Source of the DNA: Candidatus Krumholzibacteriales bacterium
GTDB taxonomy: Bacteria > Krumholzibacteriota > Krumholzibacteriia > Krumholzibacteriales > WJIX01
Direction: 5' to 3'
Assembly: GCA_046483305.1 (NCBI GenBank)
Contig: JAWODM010000034.1
Coordinates: 27,997-91,996, forward strand
Length of the DNA: 64,000 nucleotides
In this document: positions 37,113 to 54,706 of the stretch, piece after piece
Position numbering within the stretch: position 1 is the first letter of the stretch
How the letters are laid out: every line of letters begins with the position of its first letter
The notes under the pieces: generated by a model
What the model saw: only the letters and a program-made list of their open reading frames with translations
Database searches by the model: none
Told to the model about the DNA's origin: nothing
Position numbers and translations under genes: made by a program

Positions 37113-40100
37113 GTGGAGCTGCGTTTGAGAAGAACGGTTCTGAACATAATTATTTTTCTGGCTTTTCTTGCCCTGCCGCCCCGGGATTCTGTGGCTCAGG
37201 CGACAGGGGAAAGAGGAAGCAGCAGCGCTGATTCAACTCTCTACCAATGGAAGGCGGGGAATCTGAAATTCAGGGAAGTTGAGGGGAAGAGGGTGGTGTT
37301 TCTCAGCGACAGCGTCAGAATTGACCACCAGGCCGCCACTATTACATCCCTTACCGGGATGCACTACCTGGATGAGAAAAAATTCATACTGGAGGATGAA
37401 GTTCACGCCGTGGACGGGACCATGGAGATTTTCGGGGAGATAGGAAAATATTTCGGCCTGGAGAATATTCTGACCATCGAGAAGAATGTCAGGTGCCTGG
37501 ATCGCGGAATGGAGGTGACCTGTGAGAGGGGACGATACAACAGGGTTTCCACAACGGTTTTTCTTACCGGAAATGTAGTTCTTACGGACAGTACCCGGGA
37601 ACTTTACGCGGATACGGTCATTTATAACCGGAATACCGGGATAGCAAATGCCTACGGGTCGGTTGTTATCATCAATCCCGCCCAGGATTATTCGATCTCG
37701 GGACCCCATGCAAGGTATGACCGTGAGAAATCAGAGGCATATATGGACGGCTATCCGGTTCTGATCTTTGACCGGAGCCAGCAGGAGCCGGGCCGTATAA
37801 AGTCCGCGGAGATGCTTTTCAATATGGAACTGGACCGGGGAACAGCGGTGGGGGACGTCAGGATAATCAAGGGGGAAACCTCCGCGGAATGCGACTCAGC
37901 GATTATTTTTAACGATCAGGGTTATGTCGAGCTTCTGGGGGATCCCAGATCCAGGAGCGGCCTGTCGGAGATGAGGGGAAAGAGGACAGGAATCTATTTC
38001 TCCGAAAGAGAAGTCAATACCATCATACTGCCGGAATTCGGGCGTATTTCCGAGAAACCGCCCAGGGGGTCGCGGTGGTGGAAGGATTCGTGGATTGAGG
38101 GTGATTCGATAGTAATTCATCTCTCCGATGAAGATGTGGATTCGGTAAGGGTTTTCGGCAGCGCCAGGGCGATGTACTACCCTTCGGAAAGTGAAAAGGG
38201 AAAGGTCTCCAATAATTTCTCCAGCGGGGATACCATGTTCTTCAGGTTCAGGAGGAAAAACCTGATCTATGTCAATGTAACCGGTAACACCGAGGGGATT
38301 TATAAGTATATGCACCTGGAGGATAATGAAACCATAGACAGCCTGGCGGCGGAAACTGATACCGCGCTTACCTACCGGGATTTTAACAGCGAATCGGAGA
38401 AAATCAAATACAGCGGCAACAATATAGAATACTTCGCCGATACCGAAGATATCAGTATCGACCGGTCAGCCAGCATTGATTACCAGAACAAGACCCTGGA
38501 AGCCGATCACATAGACTTCAATTCGAAGCTCAATATACTGAAGGCTGAAGGCAGCCCGGTGCTCAAGGAGCACAATCAGGAGATGTACGGCTATGAGATG
38601 GGTTACGATATGGACCGTAATGGGGGGCTGGTCACCAGCGGATCCACCCAGTATGACAACGGTTATTACAGGGGGGGACATATCTTCAAGGATGGCAAGG
38701 ACATACTGAAGGTATACGATTCCATATATACTACCTGCGATCTTAAGAGCCCCCATTACTCTTTCCGTTCTCACAGGATGAAGGTATATATGGACGATAA
38801 GGTGGTATCGGGGCCTATTACCCTCTATCTGGGCGAGATGCCGATATTCTATCTCCCTTTCATGGCTAATTCTATCAGGAGGGACCGGCATTCCGGTATT
38901 CTGAGGCCGAATTTCGATATCGGGATCAACAGCAGGGACGGAAGGTTTATCAGGGGGCTGGGTTACTACTGGGCAACCAACGATTATACCGACTTCACAT
39001 TAACCGGGGATTTCAATGAATATCAGAATATCAGGTTTCATCTGGAGAACCGTTATAAGGTCAGGTATCTACTGAACGGAAATGCCGATTTCAACTTCGT
39101 GAGGAATTTCCGGGATAAGACCAGTGAATGGACGGTCAACGCTTCCCATAATCAGACATTCAGCAAAACATCTTCGTTCAGAAGCAATTTGAAATTCGTA
39201 AGCAGTGATCAGGCACAGAGGGCGTTGAACAACGTTGACGATGTTGACAGGGTAGTGGACCGGAGGATATATTCAACGGCCAGCTATAATAAAAGCTGGG
39301 GGGGGACCCGGCTGGGACTTTCCGCGAACAGGGACCAGAAACTGAATGTGGACAGCCCCACTGATACAAGGATATCCTCCACCCTTCCTCGATTCTCTCT
39401 CAACTTTCCCAGAATTTCCCTGTGGTTCGGCGGGAAGCGTAAGGGGAGCGAAAGATCGATCTGGGAGAGAGCCCTGAGAAGCATCACCTTCAGCCCCAAT
39501 CTCAGAGGGGAAAGGAGAGAGAGGATAAGCGAAGCTGAAGAGACCACGGAGCTTTCCGCCAGTTCCGGATTAGGCCTCAGCCAGCAGCATAAAATACTGT
39601 TCCTTAATTTCTCTCCCTCCATGAGTTTGAACTGGAATTACTCCAACATATTGAGCGACCGGGTGGATACAACTTATATTAAGAGAGATTCCAGGGAGGG
39701 AGAGGTGGAAAATGAATATTCGATGAGATTTGGAGCGGGAATAGGAACCACCCTTTACGGTATATTCTACCCCCGATTAGGACCGGTCAGCGGAATAAGG
39801 CATACCTTCAATCCGTCTTTCAATTACAGCTATACGCCCAGGCTTCGGGAGGGACAGGTGATGAACAGATCCCTGAGCTACTCCGTGAGGAACATTATTG
39901 ATCTCAAGGTGAGGCAGGGGGATGAGGTGGTTAAGAAGAATAACGTACTGACATGGAACATAAGTGGAAACTACGATCCGGATAGAGAGAAGGGACAGCG
40001 GTTCTCCAATATCAGAAGCGGCTTGAGGACATCTCTGGGAGGCAAATTGTCCCTGAGCCTGAACCAGACTTACGATCCCAGGGAGAAAGAGATTATATCT

Positions 40101-40571
40101 ACCAGTTTCAACGCGGACCTGGCTCTGAGCGGATCATTCTCGTATCCCGCCACGTGGTCCGTTAAGCAACAGGAGAGGGTCGCCGCGGCCGCTTCCGGAG
40201 CCGGTAATGGAGGGGGCGGCGAAACCGGCCCCGGCGAAAGAAACTGGTCACTGGCGGTGGGATACAGTTTTTCGGAGAGGGGTTCCGGAACCTTCTCCAG
40301 TGTCACCAGCAAGGTCGATCTGAGGGGCAATATTTCACTGACCAGAAACTGGAGGATATCGTACTCCGGTTATTATGACCTGGATGCGGATCAATTCACC
40401 AGCCAGCAGTATACACTGGAGAGAGACCTTCACTGCTGGAAAGCGAGCTTCATTCACCGAAGATTCGGTAACGAATGGAGTTACTACTTTCAGATATCGG
40501 TTAAGGAGCTGCCCGATATAATGTATGAACGGGGCAAGCGGGGGATAAGAAGTTCGGTCCCGTATATGTAG
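37113..40571 (+). CDS. large secreted OstA/LptD-like outer-membrane protein (probable LPS-assembly protein)
   Basis: Signal peptide, repeated OstA-N-like beta-jellyroll segments, a long C-terminal region with a beta-barrel-like pattern; 1152 aa. Confidence 0.45.
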   Translation: MELRLRRTVLNIIIFLAFLALPPRDSVAQATGERGSSSADSTLYQWKAGNLKFREVEGKRVVFLSDSVRIDHQAATITSLTGMHYLDEKKFILEDEVHAVDGTMEIFGEIGKYFGLENILTIEKNVRCLDRGMEVTCERGRYNRVSTTVFLTGNVVLTDSTRELYADTVIYNRNTGIANAYGSVVIINPAQDYSISGPHARYDREKSEAYMDGYPVLIFDRSQQEPGRIKSAEMLFNMELDRGTAVGDVRIIKGETSAECDSAIIFNDQGYVELLGDPRSRSGLSEMRGKRTGIYFSEREVNTIILPEFGRISEKPPRGSRWWKDSWIEGDSIVIHLSDEDVDSVRVFGSARAMYYPSESEKGKVSNNFSSGDTMFFRFRRKNLIYVNVTGNTEGIYKYMHLEDNETIDSLAAETDTALTYRDFNSESEKIKYSGNNIEYFADTEDISIDRSASIDYQNKTLEADHIDFNSKLNILKAEGSPVLKEHNQEMYGYEMGYDMDRNGGLVTSGSTQYDNGYYRGGHIFKDGKDILKVYDSIYTTCDLKSPHYSFRSHRMKVYMDDKVVSGPITLYLGEMPIFYLPFMANSIRRDRHSGILRPNFDIGINSRDGRFIRGLGYYWATNDYTDFTLTGDFNEYQNIRFHLENRYKVRYLLNGNADFNFVRNFRDKTSEWTVNASHNQTFSKTSSFRSNLKFVSSDQAQRALNNVDDVDRVVDRRIYSTASYNKSWGGTRLGLSANRDQKLNVDSPTDTRISSTLPRFSLNFPRISLWFGGKRKGSERSIWERALRSITFSPNLRGERRERISEAEETTELSASSGLGLSQQHKILFLNFSPSMSLNWNYSNILSDRVDTTYIKRDSREGEVENEYSMRFGAGIGTTLYGIFYPRLGPVSGIRHTFNPSFNYSYTPRLREGQVMNRSLSYSVRNIIDLKVRQGDEVVKKNNVLTWNISGNYDPDREKGQRFSNIRSGLRTSLGGKLSLSLNQTYDPREKEIISTSFNADLALSGSFSYPATWSVKQQERVAAAASGAGNGGGGETGPGERNWSLAVGYSFSERGSGTFSSVTSKVDLRGNISLTRNWRISYSGYYDLDADQFTSQQYTLERDLHCWKASFIHRRFGNEWSYYFQISVKELPDIMYERGKRGIRSSVPYM

Positions 40572-40655
40572 CCGGCACGGACTGGCCGGGGGTTAAAACC
40601 TCAAAAGCTGGCAATGAAAGATTTAGAAGAAACCTTATTTTAAAGGAAATAAGTG

Positions 40656-40684
40656 TTGACAGACATTTTTTCTGTAGCTAAAGT
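40656..40684 (+). promoter_or_regulatory. putative sigma70 promoter of hup (TTGACA, 17 nt spacer, TAAAGT)
   Basis: TTGACA at 40656-40661 and TAAAGT at 40679-40684. Confidence 0.35.
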
Positions 40685-40725
40685 AGCGATGTATTTATTT
40701 CTTGAAAAGGTAAAGGAGGTGTAGG

Positions 40726-41016
40726 ATGAACAAAACTGAATTGATTGAAAAGGTTGCTGATAAAACGAATTTGACTCGTAAAGATGCTAAAGCCGCGGTA
40801 GACGCTATCTTCAGCACAGCGCCAAGAGAAGGTATTATCGCAGGCGAACTGTCCAAGGGCAAGAGAGTCCAAATTACTGGATTCGGCACATTTTCACGTC
40901 GTAAGCGCAAAAAGCGTAAGGGACGCAATCCTCAGACTGGAGCAACAATTACTATCCCGGCGACGAAATATCCAGCCTTTAAAGCCGGAAAGGCTCTGAA
41001 GGAACGTGTCGAGTAA
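40726..41016 (+). CDS. hup: HU family DNA-binding protein
   Basis: [12 protein letters not shown]-terminus and GFGTF...RNPQTG arm. The arm is unusually basic ([11 protein letters not shown]). Confidence 0.9.
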
Positions 41017-41027
41017 TAGTATTAAAT

Positions 41028-41067
41028 ATTATAAAATGGAAGCAGGTGGATTAATCTTCATCTGCTT
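41028..41067 (+). terminator. rho-independent terminator of hup
   Basis: Stem GGAAGCAG / CTGCTTCC followed by seven T residues. Confidence 0.75.
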
Positions 41068-41213
41068 CCATTTTTTTATATATCTGACCCGGCGGGAGCG
41101 GATATCCGGAACCGTCTTGAATAAGATGACGGGTTGAATTATATTATTCCAGGCCGGTGTTAATCTGAAACAGGCATTCGGTGATACCGTTCAACAAATC
41201 AGGAAAGCTGTGT

Positions 41214-42593
41214 ATGAATAAATCAGTTTTGACTCTTATATTATTCATTCTGATAACCGTATCCGCTTTAGATGCTCTGGAAAGCGGCCCGGAGCCGGTG
41301 ACCGTGCTGTTCACCAGCGATACCGAAGGCAAGGTAAGGCCATACGGGTGAGCGTCCAAAGCCGAAGGCGGAGTGGCCCGGAGGGCTGAAGGATTCAGAA
41401 GAGAACTGGAAAAAGACGGTCAGGCACTTATCCTGTGCGCGGGTGATTTTTTCGGGGAAAAAGGTATCCTGGAGATGTTGAGGGGTAAATTCCTCGGCCG
41501 GATGATGATGAAAATGGGTTACAGCGCAGTGGCGGTTGGAGAAAAGGAATTGAATTATCAGGGCAGGGCAATCCGCGATATTCGCAGCGAAGGGCTTCCC
41601 GTTATCTGCGCGAACCTGTTCCGCGACGGAGTCAGGCTTTTCCCTCCCTATAAAATAGTAGAGAGACGGGGAAACAGAATAGGGATAATGGCCCTCCTGG
41701 ATTCAGAGCTCCCGCCGGCCCCGGATATGGTCCTGGAGCCGCCTCTGGAGACAGGAAATTCCATTGCGGAGGAGCTTAAAGATAAAGGTTGCAATATTGT
41801 TATCCTTCTGGCCCATATGAAAAGGGAAAAGATAAGTGACCTGGCTCTTTCTATTGAAGGTGTTGACCTGATAATCCGGGGCCATGCCGAGAAGAAGTCT
41901 CTGGTCTATGATGACTGCAGCGACCGGTCCATAAAATCTTTTGAGGAATTCGGTGTTCCGGTACTTTTTGCCGGCGATAAGGGGAGAATAATAGGCAAAA
42001 CAGTTCTGCTGCCATTTGAAGATGGCGGCTGTATGCTTGCCGATACCACCGTGATCCATCTTGATTCCTCATTCGAAACCGAAAATAATTATACCGCGCA
42101 TGTGAATAATTATATGAGAGAGGAAGCCCGTAAGAAAAGCATCATGGAAGTCCGGAAGAATGTGGCCCGCGATGAGCGGGGGAATATCAGGCCGGTATAC
42201 ATGGGTATGCAGGTCTGCGGTAGATGCCACAGATCCATAGCGCACAAATTTTTATCTACCCGGCACTATAAGGCCTATCAAAGGGTAAGTGACAGGGATG
42301 ACAGGGAATCATGTTTGAAATGCCATGCCACGGGTTACGGAGAGTATTCGGGGTTCGGCTCGGAAGAAGCCGCCAACAGGGATATTGAACTGAAGGGGGT
42401 TACCTGCGAGGAATGCCATGGGCCCGGAAGCGAGCACTCCCGGGACGGCAGGTATGTCGAAACAGCCAGGAATTCATGCCGGCGGTGTCACACTCCGGAA
42501 AGATCTCCGGGTTTTGATTATCAGAAGTTCCTGAAGAAGGCTTGTTCGATTATGCGAGCCGATTCCACTGTCAGAGAGAGAGCGGTTCACTGA
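41214..42593 (+). CDS. signal-peptide protein fusing a 5'-nucleotidase/metallophosphoesterase-like domain to a C-terminal tetraheme cytochrome c domain; one in-frame TGA at codon 46 (selenocysteine candidate or disruption)
   Basis: ATG 41214 starts a signal peptide and a phosphoesterase motif-I-like segment (VLFTSDTEGK). TGA at 41349-41351 is in frame with the track ORF 41373-42593, which carries GDFFGEKG and four CxxCH motifs. Confidence 0.55.
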
Positions 42594-43396
42594 TGTTCTT
42601 ATCTGTTCTGATCAACCGGGCTAAACAGAGGATTCTGAGTAATTGTGGCATTATCTCCGTTGCCATATTATCCATAATCGGTTTCGCGGCGCCGGATTCG
42701 TCCGGGGAATCCGGGGTAATGGTGCCGGGGATAAATCCCCGGGATATTACTTTCAGAGAGGGGGAGAGAGTTCAGTACCTGGTGATATCGGAGGCCTACG
42801 GTATAAGGGATTCCTCCCTGGTAACCTTTTCGGTATTCAGGCGCACCGGGTCGGAAGCCGGGATAGAGATAGAATCAGCGCCGATCCCCGCGGACTCGGC
42901 CGAGGCCGTGGTAGTGCGTATTGTGCTTTCCGGGCAGGCCTTAAACCCCGGCTGCTCTGACAGCGACAGCCTCAGGTTCGAGTCGGTGATTCTGAAAAAG
43001 GGATCTGAGCCATTCAGGGCCCTTACCGGTGAAGAGAAGGCTGAAATCGATATTAATGATTATTTCTTCGATCCATCGAAATACCGGAAAACTCCCCTCC
43101 CCCGGGATACATTGACCACCCCGGCGGGCGAGTTCTTCTGTGAATCAATGGAATTCACCAGAAGCAGCAGGGACGAAATGAACCTGGGAGGGAACAGAGC
43201 TGTAAGATTCGAGGAAGTGAAAGCTCTGCTATGGAGGTCCGAACAGGTTCCATTATGGGGGCTGGTAAGGAGCGAAGTGATAAGCAGCCGGCGGACTGAA
43301 ATTGACGACCCATCGATTCCGCGGGATATGCTCAAATCAGGCCGGAAATCATACCGGTCGATTCTGGTTTCCTATGTAGGTGTAAACAAGGAATAA
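42593..43396 (+). CDS. secreted hypothetical protein, translationally coupled (TGATG) to the phosphoesterase-cytochrome gene
   Basis: N-terminal hydrophobic signal-like segment; no recognisable domain. Confidence 0.5.
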   Translation: MFLSVLINRAKQRILSNCGIISVAILSIIGFAAPDSSGESGVMVPGINPRDITFREGERVQYLVISEAYGIRDSSLVTFSVFRRTGSEAGIEIESAPIPADSAEAVVVRIVLSGQALNPGCSDSDSLRFESVILKKGSEPFRALTGEEKAEIDINDYFFDPSKYRKTPLPRDTLTTPAGEFFCESMEFTRSSRDEMNLGGNRAVRFEEVKALLWRSEQVPLWGLVRSEVISSRRTEIDDPSIPRDMLKSGRKSYRSILVSYVGVNKE

Positions 43397-43610
43397 GGTT
43401 ACGGAGACCAAAAATTCCAGTTTTTCCGTAACAATCTTGGGCGAGGGGCTTGCCAAGAATCCGGATTAATGCTATATTGATAATTAAGTTGATGTGGAAT
43501 TAGGTGTACTGCCGGAACAGTCATTTATAGCATCTCATTGTAATAGTTGCAGGATAACATGCTCTTTTCCACGATGAAGTTGTTCTATGTACCAGGGACG
43601 GGAGGAAAAG

Positions 43611-43802
43611 ATGACCTTGAGTGGCAAGGATGATAGTGTCCTAAAGAAAACCAAGAGGTATGTGAAGTATCATCAACTGCTGACCAAAGCCAGAGAAGAT
43701 GGACGTATCGGGGGAGAATTCAAATGCCCGGTTTGCGGCATGAGTTACCATACTTCTGATAAGGCTGATAATTGCTGCAGGATTGAAGGCGAAAGTCTGT
43801 AG
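43611..43802 (+). CDS. small zinc-ribbon protein (CPVCG...H...CC)
   Basis: GGAGG ribosome-binding site before ATG 43611. Cys/His cluster at the C-terminus; 63 aa. Confidence 0.4.
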   Translation: MTLSGKDDSVLKKTKRYVKYHQLLTKAREDGRIGGEFKCPVCGMSYHTSDKADNCCRIEGESL

Positions 43803-43812
43803 GTATGATTAT

Positions 43813-44235
43813 ATGAAGAAAGGAAAAGTTAAAAGGACGAAAGAAAAAATTGAACAGTACTGTTCTGTTTGCAAGGACACTTTCGAAATGGAAGTGGTGC
43901 GGAATGATGACGATAACGGGGGTGTTCCGTGGCTGAAATGCCCCGGCTGCGAAGGATTCCTTCCCTATATGGGCGAGGATGAAGCTGAGGAAGGCGATGA
44001 CGATGAAGAACAGCAGGAACTGGCACCGGAAGACCTCTCCTCTGAAGACAGGGAAAACGCCAAAGTCTACAACCAGGCCGCAGAGTATAACATAGACGAC
44101 GTTATCTATCAGCGTTCATGGAATGACTACGGGAAGGTTCTGGACAAGGAGGTTTTACCCGGAGGGAGAAAGGTGATTGTGGTACAGTTCATTAATCAGG
44201 GCAGGATCCGTCTACTTGAAGGAGCGGAGCAGTAA
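43813..44235 (+). CDS. small zinc-ribbon protein (CSVC...CPGC) with an acidic region
   Basis: Two CxxC pairs then an Asp/Glu-rich stretch; about 140 aa. Confidence 0.45.
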   Translation: MKKGKVKRTKEKIEQYCSVCKDTFEMEVVRNDDDNGGVPWLKCPGCEGFLPYMGEDEAEEGDDDEEQQELAPEDLSSEDRENAKVYNQAAEYNIDDVIYQRSWNDYGKVLDKEVLPGGRKVIVVQFINQGRIRLLEGAEQ

Positions 44236-44243
44236 GAGTAACC

Positions 44244-45023
44244 TTGAAGAGAATTATTTATCTTCTTGCAGCCGTTTCATTGGTATTTTTCCAATCCACT
44301 GCTGCTGGAGCGGCTAACGGCTATGTGGATTTCCCATCATTTTTCAACAGCATCGATTCTTCCAGTGTTATTACCGAATTCGGTTTTTCCATCTTCGACG
44401 AAGATGCCGGATACCTGTATTCCTCCTCGGCATCAGGGAGAATAAACGACAGGCTTACCGGCAGTTTTGACGCCTGCTATTTTTCAATAAACAGAGATGA
44501 CAGGATTCAGTTCGGATTCGGAGATTTCACAATCAATCTGACATTTCAGGCATCCGGAGACAGCCTGGGAACCAGCGGTATCTTTCTGAGAACAGATATC
44601 AGGCTTCCCTCCGGGGCGAAAGCTCTGCAGCCATTCGCCAGCAGGTCCTTTGACGGGGGGGCGGGGATGGAGCTCCGCGACAGATTCTCACTGTTTACCG
44701 TAAGACTGGCGGGAACCTATACCTTCGCCGAAGAAAGGAACGCGGAGGGAATTTATCCTCACAGCAACTACTCGATACTGGCCGCCTCAGCCGGTATGGA
44801 TATAGGCCCGGCCCGGTTAATGGCCTCCGGTTACTGGGTGGATTACCGGAAGAGCGGCGACCGCCGGGTTCTTCTGTCCAGTCTGTCAGGGCGGCTTTCT
44901 GAGAATTTCAGCATTATTCTTACTGGCGGAGTGGAGGCGGGAGATGATTACGAGCGATTGTTCGATTCCATATTTTCACTGAGGCTCGCCTACCGTTTTC
45001 CTTCAGCTGAGAATGAACAGTAG
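44244..45023 (+). CDS. secreted hypothetical protein, possible outer-membrane beta-barrel
   Basis: Signal peptide (LLAAVSLVFFQSTAAGAA) and beta-strand-like alternation; TTG start. Confidence 0.4.
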   Translation: MKRIIYLLAAVSLVFFQSTAAGAANGYVDFPSFFNSIDSSSVITEFGFSIFDEDAGYLYSSSASGRINDRLTGSFDACYFSINRDDRIQFGFGDFTINLTFQASGDSLGTSGIFLRTDIRLPSGAKALQPFASRSFDGGAGMELRDRFSLFTVRLAGTYTFAEERNAEGIYPHSNYSILAASAGMDIGPARLMASGYWVDYRKSGDRRVLLSSLSGRLSENFSIILTGGVEAGDDYERLFDSIFSLRLAYRFPSAENEQ

Positions 45024-53652: not shown

Positions 53653-53689
53653 TTAACTGATGTCGTCAAAAAAGTACCGTTTGACGAGT

Positions 53690-54706
53690 ATGGCTTCGTG
53701 CGCGGGCTGAGCTTCCAAGCTCAGCCCGACGGAGTTGCGGCAGGTACTCAAGAGTTTTCCTTCCTACCATCATCCCGATCTGATATTAGGTTTTGATCAC
53801 GCCGATGATTGCGGCGTTATGCGGATATGCGAGGACCGGGCTGTAATCGTTACGGTTGATTTCTTTCCCGCTATCGCGGACGACCCCGTGGTATTCGGCC
53901 GGATAGCGGCCGCGAACGCCCTGAGCGATATTTACGCCATGGGCGGCACCCCGCTGTGCGCTCTGAATATCGTTTCCTTCCCCGAGGGCAAACTCCCCCT
54001 GGAGGTTCTGGAAGCTGTCCTGATAGGCGGAGCCGAGAAGATTGCAGAGGCGGGAGCGGTGGTGGTGGGCGGACACACCTTGAAGGATTCTGAACTGAAA
54101 TACGGGCTTTCGGTTACCGGCACAATTCATCCGGACAGGATAGTTTATAACAGCGGGGCCAAACCCGGAGACGCCCTGATTCTGACCAAACCCCTGGGGA
54201 CCGGTATATATTCCACCGCTCTCAGGAACGGAGCGCTTTCCGGCGAACTGGAGGAGGATATGTACCGGGTTATGTCCGCGCTGAACAGGGACGCGTCTGA
54301 GGTAATGAATGAGCTTGGCGTAAATGCCTGCACCGATATCACGGGATATGGGTTGGCCGGACATGCCCTGGAGATCGCCGAAGAATCGAGCGTAAGCCTG
54401 AGAATTGACCTTGACTCTGTTCCGTACCTGCCGGCTGCCAGGGAGCTTGCCGGGAAAGGTTTCCTTACCGGGGGCGGAATGGCAAACCTGAAGGACTCTG
54501 AAGCCAGAATGAAATCGAACATTGAGCTTTCCGGTGTGGATAAGATGCTTTTATGCGACCCTCAGACTTCCGGAGGGCTGCTGGTATCGATAGCCCGGGA
54601 AAAGAGCGGCAGGTATCTCGATATGCTCAGGGACAGGGGGATTTCCGAAGCGGCGGTAATCGGAGATGTTGCGGAGAGGGTAGAGGCTGCCATAATCTGG
54701 AGGTAG
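53690..54706 (+). CDS. selD: selenide, water dikinase (selenophosphate synthetase) with an in-frame UGA selenocysteine codon at 53708-53710
   Basis: From ATG 53690: MASCAG-U-ASKLSPTEL matches the SelD active-site motif GxG(C/U)GxKI. Downstream DDCGVM, GGHT, AIR-synthase-like fold. The track ORF starts at TTG 53735, after the TGA. Confidence 0.85.

Follow-up and report, generated by a model that had tools for sequence, protein, structure and literature searches.

A predicted selenoprotein of the UshA-like family, divergent and mis-annotated, in Candidatus Krumholzibacteriales

UshA-like proteins that carry selenocysteine (Sec) were described in the 2008 survey of Global Ocean Sampling sequences by Zhang and Gladyshev, where a family listed as 'COG0737, UshA-like, CxU' comprised 76 Sec and 92 Cys sequences (PMC2398784). 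The UshA-like CxU family is included in a 2022 review (PMC9312934) and in a 2026 review, which cites the NCBIfam models NF041198 and NF049981 (PMC13188914). Since the NF041198 model spans a heme domain, the fusion of an UshA-like domain with a tetraheme domain was already known. Here we analyzed a 64-kb stretch of contig JAWODM010000034.1 from a Candidatus Krumholzibacteriales bacterium (hereafter the window), in which an in-frame TGA codon at 41349–41351 interrupts a gene at 41214–42593. We conclude that this TGA is very probably a Sec codon, in which case the gene would encode one exported protein of 459 residues, and that the gene is a divergent, mis-annotated member of the UshA-like (COG0737, CxU) selenoprotein superfamily. 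The assignment of Sec follows from conservation of the TGA in orthologues, from Sec/Cys pairing in more distant homologues, from a hairpin resembling a selenocysteine insertion sequence (SECIS) and from the presence of a Sec-containing selD. What is new here is modest: a clade that scores below the NCBIfam cutoff, its truncated annotation in GenBank, the loss of the CxU Cys, and two invariant residues, C132 and C235.

The gene opens at ATG 41214, 5′ of which lies AGGAAAG (41201–41207). The 45 sense codons that follow (MNKSVLTLILFILITVSALDALESGPEPVTVLFTSDTEGKVRPYG) specify a signal peptide and then VTVLFTSDTEGKVRPYG, up to the TGA; past it, the frame remains open for 413 further codons before the stop at TGA 42591–42593. 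An open reading frame (ORF) of 406 codons, which ends at 42593, is in frame with the upstream ATG. A sequence-only reading of the window, made by a model, had reported this arrangement of ATG, 45 codons and downstream ORF, together with four CxxCH sites in the latter. Rereading the coordinates and the frame gave the same arrangement, and we located the four sites at 42216–42230, 42312–42326, 42405–42419 and 42477–42491. Their Cys and His residues are all invariant in 33 sequences. In many orthologues, a lipobox Cys replaces the secretory-type signal peptide.

We compared the protein with known families after replacing the stop (Sec46) by Cys. The top NCBIfam match was NF041198 ('UshA_like_PCGU, UshA-like (seleno)protein'), with which the protein shares an UshA-like N-domain and a C-terminal multiheme domain; the match to this hidden Markov model (HMM) spans both the UshA-like and the tetraheme parts, and in both, one loop holds the Sec/Cys residue, five residues N-terminal of GG[LV]ARR. 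PCGU members of the family (L001, L002, and L111) also carry the hairpin over the A-R-R-A codons that is described below. The protein differs from the family in its length (459 amino acids (aa) versus an HMM length of 519), and its clade has Y, F, A, V, G or D in place of the CxU Cys, as well as an invariant C132 and an insertion with C235 of its own. A weaker match, to NF049981 ('UshA-like (seleno)protein family 2'; 31 bits versus a cutoff of 140, residues 29–117), reflects an UshA-like N-terminal region with Sec near motif I. The motif of that family is CxxU, however, and its 262-position model lacks a cytochrome domain, whereas the window protein has xGU and hemes. In Pfam, the protein matched Cytochrome_C554 and MtrC/MtrF-type heme domains; with 39.4 bits for PF13435 (gathering threshold 20.8), four invariant CxxCH sites and, if the TGA is decoded, a signal peptide, it has the features of a multiheme cytochrome. 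The 100% identical GenBank entry, also from Candidatus Krumholzibacteriales, is a 406-aa 'multiheme c-type cytochrome'.

We then collected orthologous DNA, which comprised seven relatives obtained by exact protein look-up and 26 metagenome loci obtained by alignment of the phosphatase domain only. A first scan of a genome collection (alignment A1) had been swamped by a generic CEACHGPG cytochrome pattern and had yielded only distant relatives, which served as Sec/Cys outgroups. The TGA occurs at the identical aligned codon in 35 of 35 readable clade loci (29 distinct sequences, 37–84% protein identity), far more often than chance would allow; none of the clade members shows a sense codon instead. 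The frame is maintained on both sides: a signal peptide or lipobox is followed by [VL]T[IV]LFT[SG]D..G...x-G-U, five residues, and GG[VLA]ARRA. The sequence-only reading had called for such a comparison of orthologues, and its outcome is a TGA fixed throughout the clade, with Cys or TGA in distant homologues. Among 238 matches in a protein database, the best 120 were all N-truncated gene calls (253–417 aa, at most 88% query cover) that begin at or just after '(GG)VARRA', right after the TGA, and gene callers placed a spurious ORF of 43–73 aa upstream at each orthologous locus that was looked up. The public annotation thus consists of a gene of about 400 aa, called as a 'multiheme c-type cytochrome' without a signal peptide, and a spurious ORF of about 45–65 aa; our analysis corrects this systematic error, and it shows that the curated NCBIfam model misses the Krumholzibacteria clade.

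Sec in some members of a family and Cys at the same position in others is the hallmark of selenoproteins. In more distant homologues, which come from Acidobacteriota, Planctomycetota, Thermodesulfobacteriota, Myxococcota, Poribacteria and Eisenbacteria, the motif is either P-C-G-U (L001, L002 with two tandem paralogues, L009, L012, L019, L029, L035, L086, and L111) or P-C-G-C (L003–L008, L022, L030, L051, L112, and L113). A HMMER search with the truncated protein against a library of 1.84 billion representatives returned 6940 cluster representatives at E ≤ 1e-3, 2001 of them at E ≤ 1e-10; the top 150 included about 90 N-truncated calls and about 55 full-length proteins. Of the 38 full-length homologues that we inspected, 37 carry Cys in place of Sec, 35 show a C-G-C pair, and a few keep the second Cys only (IEC, VGC).

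Several features of these homologues were recorded in passing. Some 60% of the 150 top-ranking representatives of the family resemble N-truncated calls, as judged at the protein level, which suggests that Sec forms of the UshA-like family are widely mis-annotated in public data. In L002, a metagenome-assembled genome of Candidatus Eisenbacteria, the tandem paralogues (at 1877 and 3052) are both C-G-U and both have the conserved hairpin. Two proteins of about 1200 aa, P0135 and P0261, contain two UshA-like Cys-motif modules each (PCEC or PCDC, then ACGC or VCGC) with a long middle region between them, and P0239 (1042 aa) has a single UshA-like module after about 640 residues; in all three, the heme domain is on the last module only.

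We examined residue conservation in 23 clade members, 10 CGU forms and 38 full-length proteins with Cys at the Sec position. At −2 from Sec, every CGU form and 35 of the 38 Cys-position proteins have Cys; clade members have A, Y, F, V, G or D. Residues D36, D78, E110, H201, H224 and N134 are conserved, with D36 invariant in 23 of 23 clade members. The reduction of CxU to U alone in one clade argues that the Sec/Cys position, rather than the pair, is the essential residue. Since the whole clade has a lone U, it represents a natural experiment that points to candidate partner residues.

A bacterial SECIS hairpin, according to a recent model, has a loop of 3–9 nucleotides (nt) and a stem of 4–16 bp, with a G in the first two loop positions, a distance of 16–37 nt from the UGA, and a minimum free energy (MFE) of −7.5 kcal/mol or lower (PMC13188914). 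RNAalifold, applied to 30 distinct Sec sequences, predicted one consensus hairpin (alignment columns 41–55), which corresponds to 41374–41388 of the window and gives the sequence-only reading, which had proposed a SECIS prediction downstream of the TGA, a conserved candidate. The predicted hairpin lies inside the V-A-R-R-A codons and has a GGA loop that begins 28 nt beyond the UGA; its loop size, stem length, G position and spacing agree with the model. In the consensus, 96% of the cells are paired. Of 34 Sec forms, 28 keep all six pairs (5.7 pairs on average); of 11 Cys forms, one does (3.5 pairs on average). The orthologue hairpins fold at about −11 to −17 kcal/mol. Outside the clade, the helix is built from other sequences (CGCCC/GGGCG in L111, GGCAC/GUGUC in L009, GGCGC/GCGUC in L035, and UGCUC/GAGCA in L029), such that these four loci show compensatory changes. 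If Sec is inserted by the usual bacterial route, this hairpin would recruit SelB loaded with Sec-tRNA(Sec).

Several observations weigh against the assignment of the TGA to Sec in a member of this family. The protein does not reach the NF041198 cutoff (202.8 versus 275 bits); among ten proteins scanned, only L012 passed (363 bits), and the clade member L084 scored 217.5 bits. The P-C-G-U/C (CxU) motif of NF041198 is P-Y-G-U here, and so lacks the family Cys. No selA, selB or selC was found within the 64-kb window, where ARAGORN detected no tRNA. The Sec sequences come mostly from one clade, and their counts are not independent. As for the hairpin, that of the window is the weakest of its family (−7.0 versus the limit of −7.5 kcal/mol), and with a z-score of about −0.9 it is not distinguishable from shuffled sequences. 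Its site does not adopt this structure in the MFE fold of 81 nt of the window. The A-R-R-A codons are partly self-complementary, and 9% of random synonymous V-A-R-R-A versions give six pairs; some Cys forms (L030 and L005) also fold at the site. The self-complementarity of A-R-R-A also points to an easy way in which a SECIS might have arisen here. A search of the whole window with Rfam gathering thresholds, and a permissive one of 41250–41500, returned nothing relevant, and no general bacterial SECIS model was among the results.

The best-surviving alternative concerns the hairpin and not the Sec codon: the working SECIS could be a longer stem-loop that encloses the UGA, formed by 41343–41348 and 41377–41382 together with a mini-hairpin at 41361–41369 with a GAA loop. 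This structure equals the 81-nt MFE fold of the window, its helix is paired in 74% of the cells, and one pair (10:49) covaries, with GC in 19 sequences and UA in four; in selD, a strong hairpin likewise includes the UGA in its 5′ arm. However, the mini-hairpin is paired in only 63% of the cells and several orthologues (L084, L092, and L096) lack it; its loop begins just 12 nt past the UGA and often has no G at the place where the bacterial SECIS model needs one. With the hairpin at 41374–41388 much better conserved, we regard the enclosing stem-loop as the unlikely candidate of the two. The two structures exclude each other; the ribosome may melt the enclosing helix, after which its 3′ strand would refold into the hairpin at 41374–41388. 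Pair 10:49 joins the first base of the −2 codon to the first base of the second Arg codon.

The Sec-containing selD of the window indicates that the organism decodes UGA as Sec, which adds to the evidence for Sec decoding in Krumholzibacteriota. Its Sec context reads C-A-G-U-A-S-K. The sequence-only reading had counted 11 of 15 matching positions between the two sites, and the count is correct (TGA GCG TCC AAA GCC versus TGA GCT TCC AAG CTC, both U-A-S-K), but the meaning it attached to the match did not hold up. After U, each orthologue continues with other residues (AGT, GGA, RDT, GDN, GES, KDA, and others), and we therefore treat the resemblance to the selD context as a coincidence, due to chance and shared residues. 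We also rejected the context as a shared signal: no orthologue keeps U-A-S-K, and the conserved hairpin, located beyond this context on the 3′ side, bears no relation to that of selD. In selD, a perfect hairpin of 13 bp (53701–53731) includes the UGA in its 5′ arm, and its loop starts about 8 nt after the UGA, outside the range of 16–37 nt; no second hairpin is obvious after it. Apart from selD and the selenoprotein gene, a mechanical scan of the window for TGA-split ORFs yielded noise only.

Could the UGA be read through without Sec, by near-cognate insertion of Trp or Cys or under a reassigned genetic code? Leaky readthrough of UGA does occur in bacteria. In this window, however, TGA is the commonest stop, ending 21 of 46 long ORFs, the selenoprotein gene itself included, from which we conclude that the genetic code is standard. 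The Cys at the aligned position of homologues, the Sec-containing SelD and the conserved hairpin at SECIS distance also speak against readthrough of this kind, which we consider very improbable.

Equally hard to sustain is the proposal that the locus contains two genes, a secreted peptide of 45 residues ending at the TGA and a cytochrome started separately at GTG 41373. It would agree with the gene callers, which give an ORF of 43–73 aa and one of about 400 aa, and a GGAG sequence is found directly 5′ of the GTG; this GGAG is, however, too near the GTG for a ribosome-binding site, and the called starts vary among loci (MARRA, MGGVARRA, MLLL, MYRSRF). The sequence-only reading had argued that a c-type cytochrome requires the upstream signal peptide, and we find the argument sound: heme attachment at CxxCH takes place in the periplasm, so an export signal is needed, and the downstream ORF with its four CxxCH sites has none unless the TGA is decoded. 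In addition, the upstream codons supply strand β1 and the motif-I Asp of the metallophosphatase fold in the alignment to the structure PDB 2z1a. Because they complete the fold of the downstream half, one protein would be made from both halves, and homologues of the Cys form are indeed continuous single proteins. Finally, we give practically no credence to a pseudogene or a sequencing or assembly error in which the TGA is a lesion of a sense codon such as TGC or TGG, since, although a gene split by one in-frame stop is what such a lesion would typically leave and GenBank takes the downstream part as the gene, the TGA recurs in 35 independent assemblies (37–84% identity) with flanks in frame and without a sense codon in the clade. 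Of the options that the sequence-only reading had left for the TGA, Sec is thus strongly supported, and readthrough, pseudogene and error are effectively excluded.

The N-terminal part of the protein is a degenerate metallophosphatase. Residues 21–226 align by phmmer with the 5′-nucleotidase of Thermus thermophilus (PDB 2z1a; E = 1e-14), and the alignment of 'tvlftsDtEgk' with 'TLVHTNDTHAH' bears out the earlier suggestion that VLFTSDTEGK occupies the motif-I position. The paired motifs are SDTEG/NDTHA, AGDF/AGDV, GEKE/GNHE, LAHM/LSHL and RGHAE/GGHSH. Compared with the full metal-binding set (DxH, GD, GNHE, H, GH), the protein has GEKE for GNHE and no DxH His, and it keeps GD, H201 and GH224; the Pfam Metallophos model (PF00149) scored below threshold at residues 30–224 (18.6 versus 21.5 bits). 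With the 5′-nucleotidases UshA, CD73 and the T. thermophilus enzyme (PDB 2z1a, 1ush, and 4h1y), the protein shares the N-terminal metallophosphatase fold, the GD (D78), H201 and GH (H224) motifs and the GG-ARR helix. It differs from them in having DxE or DxR for DxH and GE(K/R)E for GNHE, in the Sec inserted in the loop after motif I, and in the tetraheme cytochrome that takes the place of the C-terminal nucleotide-binding domain. The window protein is probably no phosphoesterase.

Two further relatives were considered. SoxB thiosulfohydrolase (TIGR04486; PDB 2wdc) belongs to the same superfamily and is periplasmic, and outgroup members of the UshA-like family score 41–78 bits on the SoxB model, the window protein only weakly (27 bits). 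Unlike SoxB, the window protein lacks the di-manganese ligand set and a Sox gene context, and it has a heme domain. The C-terminal 110 or so residues resemble Nitrosomonas cytochrome c554 in their four CxxCH sites and in their match to PF13435 and PDB 1bvb (a second structure is 1ft5); in contrast to cytochrome c554, the domain is fused to an enzyme-like domain and has no link to hydroxylamine oxidation.

Residue 46 lies in the loop between strand β1 and the GG-V-A-R-R-A helix. As to function, we can offer a tentative proposal: the protein might be an autonomous periplasmic redox enzyme, in which the Sec46 selenolate would exchange electrons with the four c-type hemes and could act together with a resolving Cys or with the remaining metal site. 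C132 or C235 may take the resolving role in place of the absent vicinal CxU Cys. We take D78, E110, H201 and H224 to be the equivalents of the UshA metal site 2 ligands, and the lost DxH His, adjoining the Sec loop, presumably belonged to site 1; because this His is lost, the selenolate might be placed at the site 1 position. The proposal comes only from the alignment and from UshA ligand assignments, which counts against it. It is possible, if doubtful, that the Krumholzibacteria-type clade is a functionally distinct 'Sec-only' variant, with a selenolate that would work with C132/C235 or a mononuclear metal site (D78, E110, H201, H224) and would be wired to the four hemes. If true, the 5′-nucleotidase fold would here house a periplasmic selenoenzyme active site of a new type.

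Table 1. Features of the window discussed in the text, with the basis for each
Feature	Position	Strand	Description or basis
Predicted selenoprotein gene, 459 codons and stop	41214..42593	+	Signal peptide, degenerate 5′-nucleotidase-type metallophosphatase domain with Sec46, tetraheme cytochrome c554-like domain
Secretory (Sec-type) signal peptide	41214..41276	+	MNK, hydrophobic core, SALDA; read from the sequence and orthologue N-termini
Strand β1 and motif I remnant, VTVLFTSDTEG	41298..41330	+	Alignment to PDB 2z1a; D36 kept, DxH His replaced by E38
UGA, very probably Sec, residue 46, motif P-Y-G-U	41349..41351	+	TGA at the aligned codon in 35 clade loci; U or C in distant homologues
Cys132, motif ICANL	41607..41609	+	Invariant in the clade; mostly Ser in other family members
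Cys235, motif DDCSD	41916..41918	+	Invariant in the clade; within a clade-specific insertion
Four CxxCH heme-binding sites, cytochrome c554-like domain	42216..42491	+	Direct reading and Pfam
Candidate bacterial SECIS hairpin, UGGCCC-GGA-GGGCUG	41374..41388	+	Six pairs, 3-nt loop starting GG; RNAalifold consensus
5′ arm of an alternative long-range helix enclosing the UGA	41343..41348	+	Candidate; pairs with 41377–41382 and excludes the hairpin at 41374–41388
Promoter-like site, TTGAAT-17-TATATT	41117..41145	+	Consensus match only; 3′ of the HU gene terminator
selD (selenophosphate synthetase), own Sec codon at 53708–53710	53660..54706	+	TIGR00476, 376 bits versus cutoff 125, read through
Partner gene, 267 aa	42593..43396	+	ATG overlaps the selenoprotein TGA stop by 1 nt; predicted membrane-anchored, YmcC/LolA-like β fold

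A strong terminator (41033–41074) follows the upstream HU gene, and with the promoter-like site downstream of it, the selenoprotein gene appears to start a separate transcription unit. The partner gene, which overlaps its stop, is likely to be translationally coupled to it, and the position of this gene is conserved in all orthologous loci. The order LptD-HU-selenoprotein-partner (37113–43396 in the window) is conserved across the clade (L081–L087). The partner protein has no Pfam or NCBIfam match and only eight database homologues. Its AlphaFold model, of low confidence (predicted local distance difference test score 65), combines a transmembrane helix with an 11-stranded YmcC/LolA-like β domain; the fold matches had low template modelling scores (0.33–0.40) and gave no clue to function.

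Around ten distant members of the family, the genes serve housekeeping or the envelope (LptD, DciA-ABC-LolA, SLT, TsaD, PrmC, and an amidase), and no respiratory or sulfur-metabolism partner was found among them. For the 'Sec-only' variant considered above, the recurrence of lptD, lolA-like and other envelope neighbours may point away from respiration and towards the redox maintenance of the envelope. Envelope genes also stand beside L001, L009, L035 and L004 (LptD; DciA-ABC-LolA; SLT), a recurring association with genes for outer-membrane biogenesis.

After the operon, the window contains three ORFs (71, 150 and 259 aa; 43587–45023) without an NCBIfam family. ORFs of 61–63, 140–146 and 259–267 aa are found at the matching place in L082, L083 and L087, and the 71-aa ORF has a zinc-ribbon-like pattern, CPVC...C..C.

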